DNA from: Candidatus Rokuibacteriota bacterium
Lineage (GTDB): Bacteria; Methylomirabilota; Methylomirabilia; Rokubacteriales; CSP1-6
Direction of reading: 5' to 3'
Length of the DNA: 64,000 nucleotides
NCBI GenBank assembly: GCA_003220265.1
Contig: QHRW01000019.1
Span: 1,043-65,042, forward strand
Position 1 is the stretch's first letter. The number at the start of each line of letters is the position of its first letter. The notes beneath the pieces were generated by a model. That model saw nothing but the letters and a program-made list of their open reading frames with translations, made no database searches and had not been told where the DNA came from. Shown here in pieces: positions 31,810 through 62,237 of this stretch. The translations under genes were made by a program, and so were the position numbers.

Positions 31810-32220
31810 TCAGGCGACCGGGCGGAACACGAGGTCGATGGCGAGCCACAGGGCCTTCGCGAACGGATAGAAGAGGATGGGCGTGACACACATCTGGACC
31901 ACGCCGATCCAGACCGCCGTCATCCACGCCGGCTCGGGCCACGTGATGACGATCACCACGGCCAGGATCAGCGCGAAGAGGACCTCGGTGACGATGAAGT
32001 TGAGCAGGTAGGCGCCGAGCCAGTAGTCCTCCTCCTCGTCCCGCTCGAAGCGCAGCCCGCATTGGGCGCAGGCCTCCCGGAGCTTGAACCACGACTGCAT
32101 CACCCGGCCGACGCCACACCGGGGACACCGCAGCCGCAGCGCGCGTGTGAGTGCTCGAGTCACGGGCCACCGAGGCCCCCCCGGTTCCTCATGGCGGCTG
32201 CCATGATACGATCCATCCAT
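31810..32220 (-). CDS. DUF983-like membrane protein with N-terminal zinc ribbon
   Basis: 136 aa. CPRCG...CAQCG followed by two TM helices. Start may be internal. Confidence 0.7.
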   Translation of the reverse strand: MDGSYHGSRHEEPGGPRWPVTRALTRALRLRCPRCGVGRVMQSWFKLREACAQCGLRFERDEEEDYWLGAYLLNFIVTEVLFALILAVVIVITWPEPAWMTAVWIGVVQMCVTPILFYPFAKALWLAIDLVFRPVA

Positions 32221-32264
32221 TTCCGGGGCGACGTGTCGTTCCAGGGGACGAGAGGAGAGAGGTC

Positions 32265-33719
32265 ATGCACAGGCCCGTCCGGTTTTCCGCTGACATCGAG
32301 CCGCTGGTGCAGTTCGTCGAGGAGACCGATCCGAAGCAGATCCTCGAGGCGACCCTGGGCAAGCTGCGGGACGGCCTGTCGGTCAAGAGGCTGCTGACCG
32401 CCTCCGCGCTGGCCGTCACCCGGTCCTCGGACCTTCCGCCCGGCCACCATGGCGGGCCCCTGCACCCGCTGGTCGGGATCCACGCGCTCCATCACACGGT
32501 CGCGCGCGTGTCGGGCGAGCAGCGCTTCCTGCCGATCCTTCAGCACGTGGCGCTGTCGAACAAGCACATCAACCACCCGAACATGGGCCCCTACATCCTG
32601 GCCGATGCCGAGCCCGCCGACGCCGGCGGCGTCGAGGCCACGAAGAAGGCGTTCTTCGCCTGCGTGGACCGCGGCCTGTACAACGGCGCGGATCGTCACT
32701 TCCTGTGGCTCTGGGACAACATCCCCCACGGCGAGGCGCTCGACCTCCTGCTGACGGTGGCGATCCCCAAGAACACGCTCGACGATCACTACTTCATCTT
32801 CCCGATGTTCACCTGGCGCGCCCTCGACTGGCTGGGACGCGAGCACACGAAGTTCCTGATGCGCCCGGCCGTCCGCTACGTCAGCCGCTTCCCGACGCCC
32901 CCCAAGCTCGCCGACATCGAGCCGCTGCTCGACGAGTACGAGCTGCTGAAGCGCCCGCTCGGGTTCCACACGAGCCCGGACGAGACGGTCGCGATCGGCC
33001 GCCTGGGTGAGGCGATCACCCGCTGCGATACGTACGCGGAGATCCCGCGGATGCTCGCGCGGGCGCTGGCGGATGGTCTGTCGCTGCAGGGCACCGGCGA
33101 AGCGCTGTCGGTCGGCGCCGCCGGCCTGTTCATGCGCTCGCTCACGGGCAATCCGATGGACGTGCACCTGCACACCGGCGCCAACCTGCGCCGCTACCTC
33201 CTGGAGCTCGACGGCGTCAGCCTCAAGAACAAGCTGCTGGCGCTGCTGACGTGGCACACCGGCCCCGAGGTGCGCTCGACGCAGAACCGCATGGAGCCAC
33301 CGCCCCAGCCGGATCCCGCGGCCGTCGCCGCGCTACCGCATCGCACCCAGACCGAGCTGCTCGATGCGCTGGCCGAGAGCATCTTCACGCAGCCGCCCAC
33401 CGACTGGTCGAAGGTGACCAATCTCGGGCTGATGCGCGCGGTGCCCGAGGTGAAGAACACCGTGAACCTCGCCCAGCAGTACGCCGACCTCGGCTACGAC
33501 CCGGACGTGCTGATCAGCCGGCTGGCCGAGATCGTCGTGCACGACAACTTCACCGAGATGCACGCCTTCAAGCACCACCAGGCGACCTTCGAGGAGTTCC
33601 ACGCCACCCGGCTGCCGTGGCGCTGGCGGCATCTCGTCAGCGCGGCCCAGGCCTCGGCGATCTCCTACGGCAAGAACATGGAGGTCTACGAGGAGGCCAT
33701 CGAGCTCCTGCACGCATAG
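32265..33719 (+). CDS. conserved-looking hypothetical protein (484 aa), His-rich motifs, no family recognised
   Basis: Internal ATG with a GAGGAGAGAGG RBS. High GC3. Motifs PPGHHGGPLHPLVGIHALHH, DDHYFIFPMF, MDVHLHTG and EMHAFKHHQ. No signal peptide or TM segment. Confidence 0.75.
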   Translation: MHRPVRFSADIEPLVQFVEETDPKQILEATLGKLRDGLSVKRLLTASALAVTRSSDLPPGHHGGPLHPLVGIHALHHTVARVSGEQRFLPILQHVALSNKHINHPNMGPYILADAEPADAGGVEATKKAFFACVDRGLYNGADRHFLWLWDNIPHGEALDLLLTVAIPKNTLDDHYFIFPMFTWRALDWLGREHTKFLMRPAVRYVSRFPTPPKLADIEPLLDEYELLKRPLGFHTSPDETVAIGRLGEAITRCDTYAEIPRMLARALADGLSLQGTGEALSVGAAGLFMRSLTGNPMDVHLHTGANLRRYLLELDGVSLKNKLLALLTWHTGPEVRSTQNRMEPPPQPDPAAVAALPHRTQTELLDALAESIFTQPPTDWSKVTNLGLMRAVPEVKNTVNLAQQYADLGYDPDVLISRLAEIVVHDNFTEMHAFKHHQATFEEFHATRLPWRWRHLVSAAQASAISYGKNMEVYEEAIELLHA

Positions 33720-33758: not shown

Positions 33759-34044
33759 TCACCGCGCCGATCCGGAGCCCTGCTGATCGCGCCCGCTCGC
33801 GCGGCTGCGCTGCCCGTCGAGGTACGACAGCACGGCGGTGATCTCCTCGTGATCCAGGCGCAGGTTCGGCATCGCGATGTTCCTGTATTTCGTCGTCACC
33901 GCTCCCGCCACGTCTCGAGCACCCGAGGAAAGCGGCCGAGCCCGGCGCTGTCGGGCATTCCCCGACACGGTGCGCGAAATCGCAGAACGTCGAAGGGTCA
34001 CCGTGTAATGTGATGGCCGCGGCGACGGGTTCCCGTGCCGACAA
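33759..34044 (-). pseudogene. remnant of a c-type cytochrome gene
   Basis: One frame gives ...GDPSTFCDFAHRVGE (degenerate CxxCH). A second frame gives ...VTTKYRNIAMPNLRLDHEEITAVLSYLDGQ, a typical class I cytochrome c C-terminus. There is no intact ORF with a signal peptide. Confidence 0.4.
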
Positions 34045-34055
34045 GGAGTGACGCG

Positions 34056-35132
34056 ATGCGATTCGGGCTCTTCGGCAGCGCGCAGGCGCGGCGGGGCGGC
34101 CCCGACGTCGACAGCGGCGTCGGGTTCCGCGAGTTCGTCGACTACAACGTGGAGGCGGAGTCGCTCGGCTTCGTCAGCACGTTCCTCGTCGAGCACCACT
34201 TCACCGGCTTGGGCCAGGTCTCGGCCACGCTGAATCTCCTCACCTTCATCGCCGCGCGCACCACGACGCTGCGGCTGGGCACGGCGGTGCTGGTCCTGCC
34301 CTGGCACAACCCCGTGCTCCTGGCCGAGCAGGTCGCCACGCTCGACTTGCTCTCACGCGGCCGGGTCGATTTCGGCGTCGGCATGGGCTATCGCCACAAG
34401 GAGTTCGCCGGCTTCTGCATGCCGATGGAGGAAGCCGAGGCGCGCTTCCACGAGTCGCTCGTCGTCATGCTCAGGGCCTGGACCTCCGACGAGCCGTGGT
34501 CGCACCACGGCAAGTACTGGCAGTTCGACGAGGTGGTCGTCGAGCCGCCGACGCACCAGAAGCCTCACCCGCCGCTCTGGATGGGCGCCGGCAGCCGCGA
34601 GTCCATCAAGACGGTGGCGGCGCTCGGCTGCAACCTGCTGCTCGACCAGTACTCGACGGTCGAGGAGATCGCCGAGCGCATCGCCGTCTTCAAGACCGAG
34701 ATCGGGCGGCGCGGGCGCCCGTTCGACCCCATGAGCGTCGCCGTCACCCGCTCGATCAACGTGCTGACCACGCCGGCCGAGCTCCAGAAGGCGCAGGAGA
34801 ACCGCATCGCCGCGAAGCGGCGCATCGACCGGCTGACCGTGCGTCCGGACGGACAGAACGCCAGGCGTGTGTCCTCCGACGAGACGATCGCGGCCAGCGC
34901 GCTCTACGGCACGCCGGAGGCCATCGCGCACAAGCTCGAGACCCTGCGCGCCGGCGGCGCCGCCTACATCCTGGTCAACTGCCCGGGCGGCGCCGCCGGT
35001 CTCCGCCGCTTCGCGCACGAGGTGCGCCCGTCGTTCGATGACATGGGGGGCCCAGACATGGCCCCCCATACCCCCCAGCGTTCGGACCGCCCCGGCGAAG
35101 CCGGATCGGCCCTCGTTAACCCGCCCGCCTGA
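34056..35132 (+). CDS. LLM-class (luciferase-like) flavin/F420-dependent oxidoreductase
   Basis: 358 aa from an internal ATG with an AAGGAG RBS. MRFGLF..., FLVEHHFTGLG and LLSRGRVDFGVGMGY. The last ~28 codons and the stop lie inside repeat copy B. Confidence 0.88.
   Translation: MRFGLFGSAQARRGGPDVDSGVGFREFVDYNVEAESLGFVSTFLVEHHFTGLGQVSATLNLLTFIAARTTTLRLGTAVLVLPWHNPVLLAEQVATLDLLSRGRVDFGVGMGYRHKEFAGFCMPMEEAEARFHESLVVMLRAWTSDEPWSHHGKYWQFDEVVVEPPTHQKPHPPLWMGAGSRESIKTVAALGCNLLLDQYSTVEEIAERIAVFKTEIGRRGRPFDPMSVAVTRSINVLTTPAELQKAQENRIAAKRRIDRLTVRPDGQNARRVSSDETIAASALYGTPEAIAHKLETLRAGGAAYILVNCPGGAAGLRRFAHEVRPSFDDMGGPDMAPHTPQRSDRPGEAGSALVNPPA
35045..35130 (+). repeat. dispersed palindromic element, copy B
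   Basis: Hairpin ATGGGGGGCC-CAGACAT-GGCCCCCCAT, then ...CGTTCGGACCGCCCCGGCGAAGCCGGATCGGCCCTCGTTAAC. Colinear with 9813-9900 in the same orientation. Confidence 0.75.
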
Positions 35133-46461: not shown

Positions 46462-46899
46462 TTAGGGTTTGGGCTCCGCGATGAAGAGGGGGATCCGTCT
46501 CGTGGTCTTCGCTTGATACTCCTCGTACGGCGGATAGGCCGCGACGGCGAGCTTCCACAGCCGCGCCCGCCCGGCCGCGTCCTTGACCTCGCGGACATGC
46601 ATCGTCTGGACCGCCGCGTGGTCGCGGATCTCGACGGTGGGATTCACGCGCAGGTTATAGACCCACACGGGGTTGGTCGGCGCCCCTCCCATCGAGCCGA
46701 CGAGGACGTAGCTGGCGCCGTCCTTGACGCGCATCAGCGGCGTCTTGCGGACCGCGCCGGTCTTGTTGCCGGTGTGCGTGACGATGATCACCGGCAGCCC
46801 GGTGTCGCGGAGCGTCGTGCCTTCTCTTCCGCCGCTCCGCTCGTAGAGATCGACCTGGTCGCGCACCCATTGCCTGGGACTCGGAATGTAGTCGGACAT
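46462..46899 (-). CDS. deazaflavin (F420H2)-dependent nitroreductase family protein (DDN-like)
   Basis: 145 aa. GLPVIIVTHTGNKTGAVRKTPL and APTNPVWVYNLRVNP motifs. Confidence 0.8.
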   Translation of the reverse strand: MSDYIPSPRQWVRDQVDLYERSGGREGTTLRDTGLPVIIVTHTGNKTGAVRKTPLMRVKDGASYVLVGSMGGAPTNPVWVYNLRVNPTVEIRDHAAVQTMHVREVKDAAGRARLWKLAVAAYPPYEEYQAKTTRRIPLFIAEPKP

Positions 46900-46914
46900 C
46901 GTGATGGTCCTCCG

Positions 46915-49023: not shown

Positions 49024-49733
49024 GGCGAGGCGTCGGCCGGCAGCTCGGCGAGGAGACGGCCGAAGGCCGGCAGGCGATCGGCGCTCTCGAACGCGCGCAG
49101 CATCGCCCAGAGCGAGGCCTGATTTGTGGTGACCACCGGCTTGCCGAATTCCCGCTCCCAGGCCGCGACCGACGTCATCGTCGGGAAATTGCCCCCGGGC
49201 ACCACGAACGCCTCGATCTCCGGCCGATCGATCCGGGCGAAGGCGTCGCGCGCGTGCTGCGGGCCGAGCTGCCCGATGGCATAGGCGTCGGTCGCGCCGA
49301 ATCCCTCGAGCGCGATGGTGTCGAGCCTGTGCTTGTCCTCGAAATAGCGGGCGGCCCGCGCGTTGACGGCCTCCGAATAGGGCGACACGATCGCGATGCG
49401 GCGCGCGCCGAGGGCCCGCACGGCGCGGCCCACCGCCTGCGCCGACGTGATCGCCGGAACGCCGGCGCCGGCGCTCATCCGCTTGGTGACGACGTCGTCG
49501 TAGTCCTCGCTGAAGAGACTGGCCGACGTCTGGGCCAGGATCACCAGCTCGACCTTCGCCGTCCCCAGCAGGCGCGACTGATAGTCGATGTCCTCGTCCC
49601 GGCTCGGCGAGAAGCTCCCGCCACTCGACTTGAGGCGCCCGACGTGGGCCTGGTAGGTGGCCGGCACCAGCCGGCACTCGATCTCGACCGTGGTGTTCGT
49701 CGAGGGGATCAGCACGCCGAAGTGTCGGGTCAT
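49020..49733 (-). CDS. Asp/Glu racemase superfamily protein (maleate isomerase / arylmalonate decarboxylase-like)
   Basis: 237 aa. GVLIPSTNTTVE start and C-terminal VVTTNQASLW. Confidence 0.75.
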   Translation of the reverse strand: MTRHFGVLIPSTNTTVEIECRLVPATYQAHVGRLKSSGGSFSPSRDEDIDYQSRLLGTAKVELVILAQTSASLFSEDYDDVVTKRMSAGAGVPAITSAQAVGRAVRALGARRIAIVSPYSEAVNARAARYFEDKHRLDTIALEGFGATDAYAIGQLGPQHARDAFARIDRPEIEAFVVPGGNFPTMTSVAAWEREFGKPVVTTNQASLWAMLRAFESADRLPAFGRLLAELPADASP

Positions 49734-49779
49734 GGTCAGCGAGTATAATCGCGCGATCCGTCACCTCGCAGGAGGTTCC

Positions 49780-50337
49780 ATGGCCCGCATACCGCTCGTC
49801 ACCAGCCGCGACCAGATCCTCGAGAAGGACAAGCCCGCGTACGATGCCTTCATGCAGAGTCGAGGGGGCCGGCCGAACGTCGGTCCGTATTCCCTCCTCG
49901 CGCACATGCCGGAGATGGCGCAACGGCTGGAGGCGCTGCGACTCTACCTGCGTGACGAGGCCAGCCTGCCGCAGAAGCTGCAGGAGCTGGTCATGATCTC
50001 CGTGGCGGCGGAGATGGGCTGCGCGTTCATCTGGTACGCTCACGCCGCCCCGGCCCGGAAAGCCGGAGTCCGTGACGACGTCGTGGACAACATTCGCGAG
50101 AAGCGCGTGCCGACCAACCTCGATCCGGTCGAGCAAACCGTGGTGGACTTCACCCGCGAGCTTCTCCAGACGCGCAAGGTCAGCCGGGCGACGTTCGAGG
50201 CGGCCACGGCGCGATTCGGGCAGCGGGGAACCATGACGCTGACGAATCTCATCGCCTGCTACGCGGTGCTGGCGTACAACATGAACACCTACGAGCTGGA
50301 AGCTCCGGCGCACCCGACGGAAAAGGCCTTGCCATGA
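49780..50337 (+). CDS. carboxymuconolactone decarboxylase (AhpD-like) family protein
   Basis: 185 aa from an internal ATG with a GGAGG RBS. A perfect TATAAT lies at 49744-49749 upstream. Confidence 0.75.
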   Translation: MARIPLVTSRDQILEKDKPAYDAFMQSRGGRPNVGPYSLLAHMPEMAQRLEALRLYLRDEASLPQKLQELVMISVAAEMGCAFIWYAHAAPARKAGVRDDVVDNIREKRVPTNLDPVEQTVVDFTRELLQTRKVSRATFEAATARFGQRGTMTLTNLIACYAVLAYNMNTYELEAPAHPTEKALP

Positions 50338-51485: not shown

Positions 51486-52586
51486 CTAGGGCATCCCCTT
51501 CATGTCGACGGGCGCGTAGTAGCGCCGCGCTCCGAGCGCATCGACGCGCGCCCAGAAATCCGGCTGGGCGGCGAGGCCGAGCTCGGTCACGCCGGCGCGT
51601 TGACGCCACATGGCCCAGGACTCCGGATGCAGGCGACTGGCCTCCGCGAGCCAGCGGTCGCCCTCGTCCGGCTGGCCGTGCCTGATCAGGTGCTGCCCCA
51701 GGCGAAAGAGGACGTGCGCCCGCGCTGCGTCCTCGGTGGGCCGCGGCGCGTGTGCCCGGGCGCGTTCCGCATCGAAGGCGTGCTCGCTGGCGTCCCCGCG
51801 CCGGACCCAGTCGCGGAGGGCGTCCAGATACGTGGCCTTGGCCTGGGCGGTGACCCGGGCGGCGTCGGCCGGCATCTCGCGCGTCACGCGATCCATGCGG
51901 CGAAATCCCTCGTATGCGCCGGCGGGCTCCGTGGGACGCACGATCGTGCCGCGCTCGTCGATCCACACTGCCTGTGGCACGTTGACCATGTCATAGAGGT
52001 CGGCCAGGCGATGGTCGCGATCGATCAGGCAGGGATAGGTCGGCGCGGCGGCTTCGATCCACGGCAGCGGATCCTCCTCGCGGCTATCCAGGGCGACGGC
52101 GATCACCACGAAGCCGTGATCCTTCAGTTCCTCGTAGAGCGCCTGCCACACGGGCAGGTCGCGGCGGCACCCTCACCACGAGGCCCAGGACACTAGCAGC
52201 ACTTTCTTGCCGCGATGCTCGGAGAGCGAATGCCGGCACCCGGTCCGGTCGGGGAGCGAGAAATCCGGCGCCTGCAGCGAGCGCAGCGCCGACTCGCGCT
52301 CGGCGGCGGCCGTCCCGAGCACCCAGGCGCCGCCGTCTGCGCTATGGGCGAGAGGCTGGCCCAGGTGCCGCCAGAGCGCGGCCACATCGATCTGCCCGCC
52401 GCGCATGAACTCGCGTTCACGTCCCGGGGGGACGGGCACGCAGATGTTCGCGCGGCAGAAGCCCTCCGGGCGGGACGACCACCCGATGGCGGCTTCGAGC
52501 TCTGCGGCGGACAGCCAGAGTCGATCGCCCTCGGCCCGGGTATCGGGCAGTACGGTCTCGGTCGTTTCGGTCAGGAGGATGGCCAT
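51486..52586 (-). CDS. ResA/TlpA-like thioredoxin-fold protein with in-frame UGA (probable selenocysteine) and TPR-like tail
   Basis: ORF 51486..52151 and the C-terminal part of ORF 52173..53669 share one frame, separated by a single TGA (52173-52175). Read-through gives KKVLLVSWASW-U-GCRRDLPVWQALYEEL. Confidence 0.65.
52139..52162 (-). promoter_or_regulatory. SECIS-like hairpin downstream of the in-frame UGA
   Basis: The mRNA reads GCG-A-CCUGCC[CGUGU]GGCAGG-CGC. It starts 10 nt after the UGA, pairs 9 bp with one bulged A, and has GU in the apical loop. Confidence 0.45.
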
Positions 52587-52631
52587 GCCACGAACTGTAT
52601 ACTGTCGCGGCCGGGGAGGGTGTAGAGGATC

Positions 52632-53414
52632 ATGCGCGAGAACACGCTCAAGCAGCGGCTCTACGCCGGAAAGGCCGCCTTCGGCGTCATGTGCACCTTC
52701 CCCTCGCCGCCCGTGGTGGAGATGCTGGGGCATCTCGGGTTCGACTGGATCCTCCTCGACAACGAGCACGGCTCCATCACGGTCGACACGGCGGAGGCGT
52801 GCATCGCGGCCGCCGAGCTGAGCGGCATCGCGCCCATCGTGCGCCCGGTCGGCAACAAGCCCGAGATCATCGCGCCCTTCCTGGATCGCGGCGCCTGGGG
52901 CGTGCAGGTGCCTCACGTCAACACGGCGGACGAAGCGCGGGCCGCCGTCGATGCGGTGAAGTACGCGCCGGACGGTCACCGCGGCATCTTCAGCGGCGGC
53001 CGGCCCGCGGGCTACGGCTTCAAGGGCTCGACGGCGGACTACGCGAAGGACGCCAACCGCCAGACGCTCGTGTGCCTGATGCTCGAAGAGGTGGAGGCGA
53101 TCGAGAATTTGCCGGACATGGTCAAGGTCCCGGGCGTCGACGTGTTCTTCATCGGCGCCGGCGATCTCTCGCAGTCGATGGGCCACACCGGCCAGATGAC
53201 ACATCCGGATGTCCAAGCGATGGTCGAGCGCGGCGTGAAAGCAATCACGGGCGCCGGGCGCATCGCCGGCTGCAGCTGTCCCGACAATCTCATCCCCAAG
53301 TTCCTGGGCCTCGGCGTGCAGTATTTCCACAGCGGCGTGAACCGGCTGCTCCAGCAGAGCAGCGAGGCCTATCTGAAGACGACGCGTCAGGCGGCGGCCG
53401 ACGCTGGAAAGTGA
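52632..53414 (+). CDS. HpcH/HpaI aldolase family protein
   Basis: 260 aa. GFDWILLDNEHG, VRP and MLEE motifs of class II aldolase/citrate-lyase-beta-like enzymes. Confidence 0.85.
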   Translation: MRENTLKQRLYAGKAAFGVMCTFPSPPVVEMLGHLGFDWILLDNEHGSITVDTAEACIAAAELSGIAPIVRPVGNKPEIIAPFLDRGAWGVQVPHVNTADEARAAVDAVKYAPDGHRGIFSGGRPAGYGFKGSTADYAKDANRQTLVCLMLEEVEAIENLPDMVKVPGVDVFFIGAGDLSQSMGHTGQMTHPDVQAMVERGVKAITGAGRIAGCSCPDNLIPKFLGLGVQYFHSGVNRLLQQSSEAYLKTTRQAAADAGK

Positions 53415-53420
53415 GTCCCC

Positions 53421-54781
53421 ATGAGCCACGACGCCCTGCGCACGATTCTTCCGGCGGCCGGCTGGAGCGAGGACCGCGCGCGCGCGGTCGAGATCACGGG
53501 CGAGGCCGATCCGATCCTGCCGACGTCCTTTCGCATCGGCGAGACCAGCGCCGCGGCGCTGGCGGCCGTCGGCCTCGCCGTCTGCGACCTGTGGGAGTTG
53601 CGCACCGGGCGTCGCCAGCAGATCGCGGTCGACACGCGCCGGGCAACGGCGTCGCTCCGCAGCGGGCACTACATGAAGTCTATCCGGCCAGGAACGGCCG
53701 CTGGAGCTACCTGCACTGCAACTTCCCGAATCATCGGGCCGCCGCCCTCGGCGTGCTCGGCGTGCCGGAGGATCGCGAGGCGGTGCGCAAGGCGGTGGCC
53801 AAGTGGGACGCGCTCGAGCTGGAAGAGGCCATCATCAACGCCAGGGGCGCCGGCGGCATGGTGCGCACGATGGAGGAGTGGGCCAAGCACCCGCAGGCCG
53901 CCGCGATCGCCTCGCTGCCGTTGATGGAGATCGTCAAGATCGGCGCCAGCGCGCCGGAGAAGCTCGCCGACGGCGATCGGCCGCTGTCGGGCATCCGCGT
54001 GCTCGACCTCACGCGCGTGCTGGCCGGGCCCACGTGCGCGCGCACGCTGGCCGAGCACGGCGCCGACGTCCTGAAGATCACGGCGGCGCACCTGCCGAGC
54101 CTCGGCCACCAGGAATACGACACCGGCCACGGCAAGCTCTCCGCGCATCTCGACCTGCGTGAGCCGAAGGCCGTCGAGACGTTGCGCGGGCTGGTCCGCG
54201 AGGGCGACGTGTTCTCGCAGGGCTACCGGCCGGGCACGCTCGGCGACCGCGGGTTCTCGCCCGAGACGCTGGCGACGCTGCGTCCGGGGATCGTCGTCGT
54301 GTCGCTGTGCGCGTTCGGTCACGTCGGGCCGTGGGCGTCGCGCCGCGGCTTCGACACGGTGGTGCAAACGGTCAGCGGCATCACGCATCGCCAGGGCCAG
54401 CTCTTCCCCGGCGCCACGCCGGGCCCGCAGTTCTATCCCGTGTCGGCCATCGACTACTTGACCGGCTATCTCATGGCGTTCGGCGCCATGGTGGCCCTCG
54501 GCCGTCGCGCGCGCGAGGGCGGGAGCTGGCTCGTGCGGATCTCGCTGGCGCAGACCGGCCGCTGGCTGGTCGGGCGCGGCGAAGTTCCGGAGGGCCGGCT
54601 GAAGGACATCCCGAAAGAATTCACGCCTTCAGAAATCGAGCGCTGGTCGATGACGACCGACACGCCGGTCGGCCGGCTTCATCATCTGGCGCCCGTGGTA
54701 CGCCTGTCCGAGACGCCGCCGCGCTGGGCCCGGCCGTCGGTCCCGCTCGGCTACAACGAGCCGGCGTGGCCAGCGAGGTGA
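53421..54781 (+). pseudogene. family III CoA-transferase (CaiB/BaiF-like) with a frameshift near 53675-53685
   Basis: The N-terminal ~87 aa lie in frame 53421 (...ASLRSGHYMK). The rest lies in the frame of ORF 52691..54781 (EVYPARNGRWSYLHCNFPNH...GIRVLDLTRVLAGP...). Total length is 1361 nt, which is not a multiple of 3. Confidence 0.6.
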
Positions 54782-54788
54782 CGCCGCC

Positions 54789-55934
54789 ATGCGATTGAGC
54801 CTTGCCTACGAGATGCAGCGGCCGGTCGTCGACGACCATCGGGTGATCGAGGAGACGCTCGAGCAGTGCGTGCTCGCCGACCGGATGGGCTTCGACACCG
54901 TCTGGTTCGTGGAGCACCACTTCCTCACGAGCTTCTCGATGTCGCCGTGCCCGGAAGTGATGTTCGGCGCGCTGAGCCAGATGACGAAGCGCATCCGCCT
55001 GGGCTTCGGCGTGGTGATCCTGCCCTACCATCACCCGGTTCGCGTGGCCGAGCGGGTGGCGATGGTGGATCACATGTCCGGCGGGCGCGTGGAGTTCGGA
55101 ACGGGGCGCTCGGCGCCCTACGAGCAGATGGGGATGGGCATCGATCCCCGGAACACGCGGGCGATGTGGGAAGAGTCGCTGCGGATGATCCCGCGGATCT
55201 GGGAAGACGGCCTCTTCTCGTGGGAGGGCAAGTTCTGGACCGTGCCACCGCGCGACGTCCGCCCCAAGCCGTACCAGCGCCCGCACCCGCGGATCTGGGT
55301 GGCGGCGCTGCAGCCGGCGACCTACGAGCTTGCGGCGGAGCTCGGCATCGGCGTGATGGCGCTCAGCGTCGCCTCACCGTCGTACCTGGCGCCCCACATC
55401 AAGCAGTACAAGGAGCGCGTGCGCCACGCGAGGCCCGTCGGCAAGGTCGTCAACGACCAGTGGCTGAGCGCGACCATGGGGCTGTGCGACGCGGACGACA
55501 AGGCCGCCCGCGAGCTCTCCGCGAAATCGCTGCGCACGTTCTTCGGACCGGATCGCCCCTATCTCAAGGACCAGACCCACCTCTACGAGCAGCTCGTCGA
55601 CTCGTGGGGCGGCGTGCCCGACCATCTCCGCGCCAACTTTGCGCGCTATCTCAAGACGGAAGGCGCCGAGGGCGCGCCCGCCGTGGATCTCTCGGGCGGC
55701 TCGGGGCAGATCGCCTCGGCGCTGTGGAACCAGATCGACGCCGACACGCTGGTCGACCGCGGCGTCCTGGTGGCCGGCAATCCGGACACCTGCCTGCGGA
55801 GCATCGCCATCCACGAGGAGGCCGGCGTCGACGAGCTGCAATTCCTCATGGCCACCGAGACCGTCCCCCACGAGCAGGTGATGTCCTCGATCGAAATGTT
55901 CGGCCGCCACGTGATCCCGAAGCTAAAGCGCTAG
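54789..55934 (+). CDS. LLM-class (luciferase-like) flavin/F420-dependent oxidoreductase
   Basis: 381 aa. VWFVEHHF and MSGGRVEFGTGRS motifs. Confidence 0.88.
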   Translation: MRLSLAYEMQRPVVDDHRVIEETLEQCVLADRMGFDTVWFVEHHFLTSFSMSPCPEVMFGALSQMTKRIRLGFGVVILPYHHPVRVAERVAMVDHMSGGRVEFGTGRSAPYEQMGMGIDPRNTRAMWEESLRMIPRIWEDGLFSWEGKFWTVPPRDVRPKPYQRPHPRIWVAALQPATYELAAELGIGVMALSVASPSYLAPHIKQYKERVRHARPVGKVVNDQWLSATMGLCDADDKAARELSAKSLRTFFGPDRPYLKDQTHLYEQLVDSWGGVPDHLRANFARYLKTEGAEGAPAVDLSGGSGQIASALWNQIDADTLVDRGVLVAGNPDTCLRSIAIHEEAGVDELQFLMATETVPHEQVMSSIEMFGRHVIPKLKR

Positions 55935-60499: not shown

Positions 60500-60529
60500 T
60501 TGACGGCGTGCGAGAAGGTGCATCACACT
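60500..60529 (+). promoter_or_regulatory. candidate sigma70-type promoter giving a near-leaderless mRNA
   Basis: TTGACG (60500-60505), 18 nt, CACACT (60524-60529). The ATG at 60538 lies 9 nt after the -10 box and has no RBS. Confidence 0.4.
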
Positions 60530-60537
60530 CCCCTCCC

Positions 60538-60816
60538 ATGTCGTCGTCCCGTCGCGTGGTGGTGCTGCTCGTGGTTCTCGCGATGCTGATCGGCGTCGCC
60601 ACGCCGCCCGTGATCGAGGATCACGTGGAGGTCGGCTTCTGCAGCGCCGACTGTCCGGTCCAGCATCCCGGCAACACGAGCGCGCTCGCTCCACCGCCGG
60701 CTCCGAGCGCCGCCCGGCGCTGTCCGGCCATCGTGATCGCCGCCGTGCGTCTCGCCGCCGCCGAATCCGGCATCGTCGCGACGCCGGACGCCCCGCGCGC
60801 ACCGCCCTCCGCGTAA
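60538..60816 (+). CDS. small membrane-anchored hypothetical protein with CxxxC motif
   Basis: 92 aa. Very high GC3 in this frame. TM segment RRVVVLLVVLAMLIGVA. FCSADCPVQHPG motif. TAA stop. Confidence 0.5.
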   Translation: MSSSRRVVVLLVVLAMLIGVATPPVIEDHVEVGFCSADCPVQHPGNTSALAPPPAPSAARRCPAIVIAAVRLAAAESGIVATPDAPRAPPSA

Positions 60817-60893
60817 CCCGCTGCTCGCGTCGCTTCAGCTCCCTGCCGGCTCACGCCGGCGTCGTCGAGCCACGCCAGTCAACGGAGAACGCC

Positions 60894-62237
60894 ATGCGCA
60901 CGCACGGACGCCGTTCGATCGCGCTACTGGTTGTCCTTTCGTTCAGCATCCTCACGGGCCCCGCGCACGCGCAGGATGCCGACGTCCTGCGGCGAGAGCT
61001 GGAGGCGCTGCGCCAGCAGTTCGCCACCGTCACGCAGTCGTACGAGCAGCGGCTGAAGGCGCTGGGCGATCGCCTCCAGCAGCTCGAGGGCCGTGCCGCG
61101 CCCGCTGCGCCGGCACTCGCGCCGCCGGCGCCGCGCGCGCCCGCCGTCGATGCGCCGAGCCTCGCCGACCTGGCACGGCCGCGACAACCGTTCGCGCTGG
61201 CTCAGCCGGGCCGCGCGCTGCTGTTCGACATCGGAGTCAGCGGGGATTTCGTGGCGGACTTCACCTCGGCGACGCGCGAGCGCCGGCACGACGGCACCTT
61301 CGCCGGCCGCGAGAACCGTCTCTTCCCGCGCGAGGTCGAGCTGGGATTGTTCGGCCGGGTCGATCCCTACGCGAGCGCCGTGGTGCGGATCAGCGCCGGC
61401 GAGGAGCCGAGCGAGGGCGCGTCCTCGTCGCGCGAGGTGATCGTCCGCCTCGACGAGGCCAACGCAACGCTGCTGGACCTCCCGCTCGGCACCACCGCGC
61501 GGTTCGGGCTGATGCGGCCCCGGTTCGGCACGCTGAACACGATCCACCAGGACGATCTGCCCCAGGTCGATCGGCCCAACGTGCTCAGCCGCTTTTTCGG
61601 CGAGGAGCAGCTGGACGGCGAGCGCGGCGTCGAGGCTTTCTGGGTCCTGCCCGTGTCCATCTATCACGAGCTCTCCCTCGGCATCTTCGACGGGGACAAC
61701 GAGACGGCGTTCGGCCGCGGCTCGCTGCGCGATCCACTGCTCATCGGCCGCTGGCGCACGTTCTTCGAGCTCGAGGAGCGCGGCGGGCTGCAGCTCGACG
61801 CGTCGGCGGCCACCGGCATCACGGCCGACGGCCACCGCAACACCGTGGTCGGGCTGGGCGCCAAGTACAAGTGGATCGGCGCCGGTTCCGGGTTCCCGGT
61901 CCTCACCCTGGCTGCGGAGGGGTTGGGCAGCTTCCGCGTGGTCGATACGTCCGGCGGCGACCGGCACGTCGAGCGCTGGGGCGCCTACGCGTACACGCAG
62001 TACGACGTCGACCGCCGGTGGGCCGCCGGCCTGCGCGGCGACTGGACCGAGCTGCCCGTCGAGCGCGGCCGTGAGTGGGCGCTGTCACCGTACGTGCAGT
62101 TCAAGCCGTCCGAGTTCCTGCGCTTCCGTCTGCAGTACAAGCACACCGAGGGGCGCGGCGTCGTCGAGCGCTCCGCCGACGAGGTGTTCTTGCAGGGCAG
62201 CTTCATCCTGGGCGCGCATCCCACGGAGCGGTTCTAG
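60894..62237 (+). CDS. porin-like outer-membrane beta-barrel protein with N-terminal coiled coil
   Basis: 447 aa. Signal peptide, heptad-like LRRELEALRQQFATVTQSYEQRLKALGDRLQQLEGR, Ala/Pro linker, beta-barrel body, C-terminal ...HPTERF. Confidence 0.65.
   Translation: MRTHGRRSIALLVVLSFSILTGPAHAQDADVLRRELEALRQQFATVTQSYEQRLKALGDRLQQLEGRAAPAAPALAPPAPRAPAVDAPSLADLARPRQPFALAQPGRALLFDIGVSGDFVADFTSATRERRHDGTFAGRENRLFPREVELGLFGRVDPYASAVVRISAGEEPSEGASSSREVIVRLDEANATLLDLPLGTTARFGLMRPRFGTLNTIHQDDLPQVDRPNVLSRFFGEEQLDGERGVEAFWVLPVSIYHELSLGIFDGDNETAFGRGSLRDPLLIGRWRTFFELEERGGLQLDASAATGITADGHRNTVVGLGAKYKWIGAGSGFPVLTLAAEGLGSFRVVDTSGGDRHVERWGAYAYTQYDVDRRWAAGLRGDWTELPVERGREWALSPYVQFKPSEFLRFRLQYKHTEGRGVVERSADEVFLQGSFILGAHPTERF

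Follow-up and report, generated by a model that had tools for sequence, protein, structure and literature searches.

Does the TGA codon that separates two minus-strand open reading frames (ORFs) on a contig of a Candidatus Rokuibacteriota bacterium (QHRW01000019.1, assembly GCA_003220265.1) end a gene, or does it encode selenocysteine (Sec)? The window analysed here is the whole 64,000-nucleotide stretch from position 1,043 to position 65,042 of this contig, and all positions given below are counted from its first letter. One of the two ORFs lies at 51486..52151 (221 amino acids, with a GTG start) and the other at 52173..53669, and the tail of the second is in frame with the first. A first-pass annotation, made from the sequence alone, had proposed that the two are parts of one selenoprotein. 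We conclude with high confidence that the locus encodes a single, probably cytoplasmic selenoprotein of 366 residues in which the UGA specifies Sec, and that this protein belongs to the ResA-like WAxxUGC family, the UGC-containing members of the TlpA family.

Translation from 52586 to 51486 gives a single frame with one internal stop, the TGA at 52173-52175, which stands in the context ...GKKVLLVSWASW-TGA-GCRRDLPVWQALYEELKDHGFVVIAV.... The read-through product is made up of 137 amino acids, Sec138 and a further 228 amino acids. The arrangement described in the first-pass annotation, two ORFs in one frame with only this TGA between them, is therefore seen both in the ORF list and in the translation. 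TGA also serves as an ordinary stop codon in the window, which has a G+C content of 70.5%. Among 41 ORFs compiled from Pfam scans it terminates 29, the remainder ending in TAG (11) or TAA (one). The genome has therefore not reassigned UGA, and the earlier remark that there is no global recoding holds. The window was scanned for same-frame TGA codons flanked on both sides by a coding signature, defined as a G+C content at third codon positions (GC3) above 0.82, and four were found. Three of these are followed within a few codons by an ATG and are thus junctions between adjacent genes. The TGA at 52173-52175 is the only one without a nearby downstream start, and the scan gave no further selenoprotein candidates in the 64-kb window.

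Homologues of the read-through protein were searched for among 5.8 billion proteins, and the best 120 were considered. These relatives form two classes, full-length proteins of 360-386 amino acids that are 51-60% identical to the window protein, and fragments of 221-222 amino acids that are 79-97% identical. The fragments start right after the TGA and are therefore truncated gene calls of Sec forms. They make up about 70 of the best 120 homologues, which agrees with the prediction that ordinary gene callers would split this gene. The Cys-containing homologues of 360-375 amino acids align end to end with the read-through protein and are encoded by single ORFs. The column of the UGA is occupied by Cys in all 40 aligned full-length homologues (19 of 19 in a first alignment), within the motif WASW-C-GC.

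The TGA itself is also conserved. In a collection of species-representative genomes it is kept in frame in all eight related loci, which represent three lineages. These come from metagenome-assembled genomes (MAGs) of Methylomirabilota/Rokubacteria, which are the closest relatives, from two MAGs of Hyphomicrobiales and from one alphaproteobacterial chromosome. Protein identity between these loci and the window is 54-82% before the TGA and 55-91% after it, the upstream match being fragmentary in one locus (L005). A scan of metagenomes for DNA encoding W-A-S-W-TGA-G-C found at least 120 loci, which gave at least 94 further family members. With the genomic loci and the window included there are at least 102 in-frame members, with 100 distinct sequences in the 48 nt downstream. 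At least about 100 distinct metagenomic relatives, among the matches listed, keep the TGA and conserve the protein on both sides of it. In two of the Rokubacteria MAGs the tblastn match to the C-terminal half of the gene is split into overlapping segments (L006:3209-3267 and L007:3200-3264), which suggests frameshifting indels that are probably assembly errors in those MAGs.

These observations bear directly on the possibility that the TGA is a true stop, whether as a nonsense mutation in a pseudogene, as a sequencing error, or as the boundary between two genes of 137 and 221 amino acids, the latter starting at GTG 52151. The ORF listing does give exactly these two ORFs, TGA is a normal stop in this genome, and public gene callers annotate many products of 221-222 amino acids. 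Against this, independent assemblies cannot all have acquired the same error or recent mutation, and here the same codon recurs in all eight genomes and in the metagenomic sequences. The eight codons from the TGA to the GTG (GCRRDLPV) are conserved in frame and include the resolving Cys, and a split at this point would sever both the catalytic motif and the thioredoxin fold, which the Cys homologues encode in one ORF. Because the TGA recurs across lineages with both of its sides conserved, we exclude a pseudogene, a sequencing error and a pair of genes, and consider it extremely improbable that translation ends here.

Bacterial selenocysteine insertion sequence (SECIS) elements are hairpins that lie within the coding region, and the first-pass annotation had drawn such a hairpin of 24 nt at 52139-52162, beginning 10 nt after the UGA. 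It folds as drawn, (((.((((((.....))))))))), with an energy of -14.7 kcal/mol (z -2.64 against dinucleotide shuffles, 6 of 200 of which fold as well). Within it lies a core of 17 nt, whose stem starts 14 nt and whose loop starts 20 nt after the UGA. In the reading frame this core runs from the third base of codon D143 through codons L144-Q148 into the first base of A149, and it has an energy of -9.3 kcal/mol (z -3.1).

The conservation of the hairpin was examined in a gap-free alignment of the 48 nt that follow the UGA in 100 distinct Sec forms. RNAalifold gives a single helix of 6 bp for this alignment, formed by columns 18-23 and 29-34 with a 5-nt loop, and in the window it corresponds to 52142-52158. 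In this core helix 98.8% of cells are paired. The pair 18-34 is CG in 64 sequences, UA in 23, GC in four, UG in four and AU in one, and the pair 19-33 is CG in 84, UA in 10 and UG in four. At the latter pair the Leu codon CUG/UUG covaries with the Gln codon CAG/CAA, with ten double changes that are synonymous on both sides. The observed covariation score was reached by none of 500 shuffles. The third base of the stem Leu codon is G in all 100 sequences, in contrast to columns 37-39, which also mostly encode Leu and contain CTC (26), CTG (23), CTT (8) and CTA (3). The loop has the consensus N-G-[G/U]-N-U, in which the G is invariant.

The structure as a whole, with nine pairs, is paired in 83% of cells, a value that falls to 31-61% when the 3' partners are shifted by 1-3 columns. 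The lower GCG/CGC stem is paired in 51% of cells across the 100 sequences, with one clean compensatory case (GUG/CAC in L003). Together with the bulged A it is present in the window and in close relatives and is not kept family-wide, so that it is clade-specific at best. Of the SECIS-like hairpin first described, the 6-bp upper stem and its loop have therefore been confirmed as conserved features, but the lower stem and bulged A have not. A published model of bacterial SECIS elements (bSECIS) specifies a loop of 3-9 nt, a stem of 4-16 bp, a distance of 16-37 nt from UGA to loop and a minimum free energy of -7.5 or lower, with a G at one of the first two loop positions, then G or U (PMC13188914). 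The window hairpin fits this model with its 5-nt loop, 6-bp stem, G at loop position 2 followed by U, distance of 20 nt and energy of -9.3 kcal/mol.

The Cys forms provide a control for these observations. All six pairs are kept in 94 of the 100 Sec forms and in none of seven distinct Cys-form genes (Fisher p = 6.6e-8). In two of these seven genes the stem Leu codon is CTA or CTT, and their loops include CATAT, TTTGT and GCCAT. As the hairpin is absent from the Cys forms and covaries at synonymous sites in Sec forms, selection acts on it at the RNA level, and only alongside the UGA. The SECIS element also shapes the encoded protein. At the loop codon (columns 25-27) all 102 Sec forms encode Val or Gly, while the 40 Cys forms encode Val in 24 cases, Leu in six, Pro in four, Ile in three, Ala in two and His in one (p = 1.2e-10). 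After the Gln, Cys forms mostly have Ser. Sec forms avoid Ser at this position and almost never carry it there; they mostly have Ala, Thr, Glu or Lys, whose codons start with a base that pairs with column 18.

The WAxxUGC family that had been mentioned in the first-pass annotation exists as the NCBIfam equivalog NF041054.1, 'ResA-like WAxxUGC motif-containing protein' (WAxxUGC_long). The window protein, with Sec entered as Cys, matches it above its cutoff (301.8 bits against 300, E 7.4e-90) over residues 25-361, which align to positions 8-353 of the 354 in the profile. The W-A-x-x-U-G-C motif, with its U encoded by TGA, is present. This match, the Cys homologues, the kept TGA and the covarying hairpin together back the earlier proposal of one 366-residue selenoprotein of this family. 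A family named 'Prx-like (UGC-containing)' was described in the Global Ocean Sampling (GOS) survey, it was assigned to pfam00578, carried the UGC motif and comprised 46 Sec sequences and 855 Cys homologues (PMC2398784). The window gene is an ordinary member of NF041054, with which the GOS family of 2008 may not be exactly co-extensive. NCBI and a catalogue from 2026 file the family under cd02966, TlpA-like. A review reports that 63 selenoprotein genes are predicted in one MAG of the Methylomirabilota (PMC13188914), which indirectly supports the presence of Sec machinery in the genome of the window. The string 'WAxxUGC' was not found in the literature searched, and the deep-Sep and BSepDB papers do not mention the family under the names searched. 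Because the family is already curated and published as a predicted selenoprotein, the novelty of this locus is low. What is added here is a family-wide SECIS consensus with covariation, a control with Cys forms and a three-domain model.

Several results weigh against the identification of this UGA as a Sec codon in the NF041054 family. Neither the 64-kb window nor some 660 kb of related loci yielded selA, selB, selD or a tRNA-Sec. Searches with E. coli SelA, SelB and SelD (NC_000913.3) by tblastn against the window and all loci gave no match at E <= 1e-3, and no sel genes appear in the Pfam annotation of 46 window ORF translations. ARAGORN predicts no tRNA in the window, and three in the window and fetched loci together, none of which is a tRNA-Sec. 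Such an absence near the locus is expected if these genes are unlinked to it. The hairpin, when placed in a context of 48-66 nt, does not fold significantly better than shuffles (z -0.8 and -1.6). A rival GC-rich fold at 52128-52175 is more stable (-22.3 kcal/mol) and disrupts the conserved hairpin. This fold, seen in the window and the relatives closest to it, pairs GGGUGCCGCCGC, immediately downstream of the UGA, with GGCAGGCGCUCU further downstream. Columns 10-15 of the alignment are variable, and the fold is therefore not conserved in the family. The hairpin has no counterpart in Rfam, as the window gives no hits at gathering thresholds and the region 51900-52400 gives, at E <= 10, chance-level matches to small RNAs and microRNAs and to no SECIS family. 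The NF041054.1 cutoff is passed by just 1.8 bits, and the score relies on U being entered as C. Finally, no biochemically characterised member of the family was found in the literature searched, and for this reason we infer its redox mechanism from fold and motif.

The folding of a single sequence was set aside as proof of a SECIS element in view of these context scores and the more stable competing fold. The case for the hairpin rests on the comparative evidence, since single-sequence energy is insufficient in context.

That no Sec machinery was found in the window and the related loci would also be consistent with a UGA that is read through without Sec, either by near-cognate suppression with Trp, Cys or Arg, or through a lineage-wide reassignment. 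On this view the hairpin would merely reflect the conserved peptide D-L-P-V-W-Q, or would stimulate read-through in a non-specific way. Its stem does overlap strongly conserved codons (L, P, W and Q), and its conservation could be largely driven by the protein. Reassignment is excluded by the 29 of 41 genes that end in TGA. A by-product of the peptide is contradicted by covariation at synonymous or free sites, where GAC/GAU changes in step with the base that opens the next variable codon, and CUG/UUG in step with CAG/CAA, and by the Cys forms, which encode the same or a similar peptide without the hairpin (Leu as CTA or CTT; loop residue I, L or P). In addition, the loop obeys the G-[G/U] rule of SelB-type elements, the recoded site is that of the redox Cys, which is the classic Sec/Cys signature, and the family is curated as a selenoprotein (NF041054; PMC13188914). 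Read-through without Sec is therefore very unlikely, and we retain Sec insertion as the explanation of this UGA.

The selenoprotein is composed of three domains (Table 1). In alignments of 40-41 sequences the N-terminal domain has six invariant residues, W24, G35, W36, G42, C44 and C49. Taken by itself from the window sequence, this domain is modelled by AlphaFold2 with a predicted local distance difference test (pLDDT) score of 84.4. It has no match in Pfam and no significant fold match in the PDB (Foldseek, best E 1.5). The N-terminus of the protein, MAILLTETTETVLPDTRAEGD, lacks any hydrophobic stretch and forms beta-strands of the folded domain in the models, although no dedicated signal-peptide predictor was run. 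The protein is probably cytoplasmic, and because it has no signal peptide or membrane anchor it is not an orthologue of ResA or TlpA.

The central domain matches the Pfam families AhpC-TSA (PF00578, 74.5 bits with a cutoff of 26) and Redoxin (53.5 bits) at residues 105-216. Its Cys186 is nearly invariant. A Cys homologue (P0001) that is 60% identical to the window protein was modelled with AlphaFold2 from a 40-sequence alignment, and the model, which shows three domains, has a pLDDT of 92.5 and a predicted template modelling (pTM) score of 0.90. In this model the CGC motif lies just before helix 139-157 (alpha-1), at the canonical nucleophile position of the thioredoxin fold. Foldseek aligns the model to ResA (1st9/1su9) and to 4nmu with template modelling (TM) scores, normalised to the target, of 0.77-0.79 and a root mean square deviation of 1.6 A over 116-118 residues, and structures of ResA, DsbE and Etrx superpose on the thioredoxin domain at about 1.6 A. 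The redox centre is UxC, or CGC in Cys forms, and is one residue shorter than CxxC, which appears as a one-residue gap in the profile alignment to a thioredoxin-family protein in the PDB (WasWCG.Cr against WatWCPpCr). The first-pass annotation was right in placing the UGA at the nucleophile position, but the motif is W-U-G-C rather than the WCxxC that it had named.

The C-terminal domain is helical. A profile search of PDB sequences finds a single repeat resembling the tetratricopeptide repeat (TPR) at about residues 286-328, the only part of the protein that consensus TPR proteins match, and homologues carry weak TPR_14 marks in Pfam. The architecture first suggested, an N-terminal domain followed by a thioredoxin fold and a TPR-like tail, was thus recovered, but with only this one TPR-like repeat.

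The fold leaves two classes of enzyme to be weighed, as the selenoprotein could be a peroxiredoxin-type peroxidase instead of a thiol-disulfide (selenenylsulfide) oxidoreductase of the TlpA/ResA type. Its best Pfam match is AhpC-TSA, its family was first named Prx-like (PMC2398784), there are weak matches to PrxQ/BCP and GPx models, and a Sec nucleophile is typical of peroxidases. The peroxiredoxin motif PxxxTxxC is absent, however, and the local sequence K-V-L-L-V-S-W-A-S-W-U has no Pro at -7. The pattern of the family, (F/L)LVxWASW-U-GC, is instead that of W-x-x-W-C in TlpA and ResA. ResA, TlpA, DsbE and Etrx outrank peroxiredoxins in the sequence search (1e-17 to 1e-20 against 1e-5 to 1e-7), the top 30 Foldseek matches likewise rank the ResA/TlpA class above peroxiredoxins, and the filing under cd02966 by NCBI and the 2026 catalogue points the same way. 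Since PxxxTxxC is absent, a peroxidase-type function is the weaker alternative, and we regard it as unlikely. We therefore favour an oxidoreductase of the TlpA/ResA type. At the level of family models the protein nonetheless scores far below the cutoffs for ResA (NF002854, 73.2 of 170 bits), TlpA (NF047696, 49.8 of 230 bits) and DsbE (TIGR00385, 28.0 of 123 bits), and also for StoA.

A mechanism can be proposed for the favoured reading. By analogy with known systems, the 17-nt hairpin would bring SelB, loaded with GTP and Sec-tRNA(Sec), to a ribosome that has paused at the UGA. In the finished protein Sec138 would occupy the N-terminal nucleophile position, and Cys140, two residues on, would be the resolving residue. 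The Sec138 selenolate may attack a disulfide, a peroxide or another oxidised substrate, a strained intramolecular selenenylsulfide between U138 and C140 would then close, and it would be reduced again. The protein would on this account be a cytoplasmic selenol/thiol oxidoreductase that cycles through the U138-C140 selenenylsulfide. The Cx4C pair is, more speculatively, a candidate relay or substrate-binding site.

A broader and more tentative proposal is that the long UGC/CGC family represents a distinct cytoplasmic redox enzyme, neither a maturation factor of the ResA type nor a peroxiredoxin. Its N-terminal domain would have a fold without relatives among solved structures, the Cx4C pair of this domain might pass electrons or substrate to an unusually strained U-x-C centre, and the Sec and Cys versions might have been swapped repeatedly across phyla (Methylomirabilota, Alphaproteobacteria, Myxococcota and others). 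The data are compatible with this proposal, since no operon is conserved, no member is known to have been characterised and the N-terminal domain matches nothing in the PDB, and we consider it possible rather than probable.

The surroundings of the gene show no conserved gene neighbourhood, as the other Sec and Cys loci have unrelated neighbours. A divergent HpcH aldolase gene is common only to the window and its closest relative (L001). No cytochrome-maturation genes occur around the locus or the related loci, and there is no operon clue to function. The selenoprotein gene (ATG 52586, minus strand) and the HpcH/HpaI aldolase gene (ATG 52632, plus strand) are divergent, with 45 bp between their start codons (52587-52631). 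No obvious Shine-Dalgarno sequence is found upstream of the selenoprotein ATG.

Downstream of the aldolase lies a gene of CoA-transferase family III (53421-54781, plus strand), whose frame apparently shifts near 53,670-53,690. The frame from ATG 53421 reads ...ASLRSGHYMK and then degenerates, while another frame containing ...VYPARNGRWSYLHCNF... runs to the stop at 54781. The Pfam match covers only positions 1-203 of the 366 in the profile and is preceded by about 190 residues that resemble the middle part of such enzymes. This change of frame could reflect an indel error, a pseudogene or a permuted or fused form. The window also contains genes for an F420H2-dependent quinone reductase, two luciferase-like monooxygenases and a carboxymuconolactone decarboxylase (AhpD-like), which hint at the use of F420. 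Two long ORFs on the plus strand have no Pfam match at E <= 0.001. The ORF at 32151-33719 (522 amino acids, GC3 0.92) has a strong coding signature, and that at 60504-62237 (577 amino acids, GC3 0.86) a fair one.

Table 1. Coordinates of the selenoprotein gene, its recoding elements and domains, and of the other redox genes in the window
Feature	Position	Strand	Basis or detail
Complete selenoprotein gene	51486..52586	minus	ATG 52586-52584, Sec-UGA 52175-52173, stop TAG 51488-51486; 366 codons
In-frame TGA, selenocysteine U138, motif W133-A-S-W-U138-G-C140	52173..52175	minus	Cys homologues and kept TGA
Conserved SECIS core, 6-bp stem CCUGCC/GGCAGG, 5-nt loop CGUGU	52142..52158	minus	RNAalifold on 100 sequences
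Extended hairpin, core with lower stem GCG/CGC and bulged A	52139..52162	minus	Folding
N-terminal alpha/beta domain, residues 1 to ~105, C44/C49 (Cx4C)	52272..52586	minus	Alignments and AlphaFold2
TlpA/ResA-class thioredoxin fold, residues ~105-217, U138-G-C140	51936..52274	minus	Pfam and Foldseek
C-terminal helical domain, residues ~218-366, conserved motif HP(D/E)SW..WRQ	51489..51935	minus	Profile search and model
F420H2-dependent quinone reductase, two luciferase-like monooxygenases, AhpD-like gene	46462-46914, 34014-35132, 54654-55934, 49657-50337	minus, plus, plus, plus	No in-frame TGA

The identification matters chiefly for annotation. This gene is miscalled as a protein of 221-222 amino acids and labelled 'hypothetical' or 'AhpC/TSA', and so are at least some 70 of its close relatives in public collections of metagenome genes (JGI/ENA). 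These truncated calls lose the catalytic selenocysteine and the entire N-terminal domain, so that the family is mis-annotated systematically. Recognising the UGA restores a redox protein of 366 amino acids and marks the source organism as a user of selenocysteine. The alignment also yields a compact SECIS descriptor for the family, which consists of the UGA, 14 nt, a 6-bp stem of the type YYUGYC/GGCARR and an N-G-K-N-U loop, and which comes with a clean control of Sec against Cys forms. The locus is a clear example of a SECIS element that shapes the protein in which it is encoded. The scientific gain is modest, as the family has been curated and published before.

Among known systems the closest is the NF041054 family itself. 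The window protein shares with it the W-A-S-W-U-G-C motif, a full-length match, a single Sec, abundant Cys homologues and a fold of the AhpC-TSA/Redoxin/cd02966 type, and differs from it in nothing essential.

ResA of Bacillus subtilis and TlpA of Bradyrhizobium are extracytoplasmic thiol-disulfide oxidoreductases that function in the maturation of cytochrome c and CuA. Their thioredoxin core is like that of the window protein, with a conserved Trp preceding the nucleophile at the start of helix alpha-1. The window protein differs from them in having UxC or CxC instead of CxxC, in lacking a membrane anchor or signal peptide, in scoring far below the ResA and TlpA cutoffs, and in its two extra domains, the N-terminal domain with Cx4C and the C-terminal helical domain.

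The minimal SECIS element of E. coli is an upper stem-loop of 17 nt located about 11 nt from the UGA. Like the element of fdhF, the window hairpin lies within the ORF right after the UGA and has a small loop with G followed by U or G. It has no sequence similarity to the fdhF element, however, 14 nt separate the UGA from its conserved stem, and the lower stem next to its bulged A is not conserved in the family.

In other thioredoxin-fold selenoproteins of bacteria, which include the Prx-like, Trx-like and DsbA-like proteins with UxxC and the SelW-like proteins with CxxU, Sec likewise replaces a redox Cys, and Cys orthologues outnumber Sec forms (PMC2398784). The window protein differs from these in having a single residue between the Sec and the resolving Cys, a U-x-C spacing that implies a smaller and probably more strained selenenylsulfide ring.

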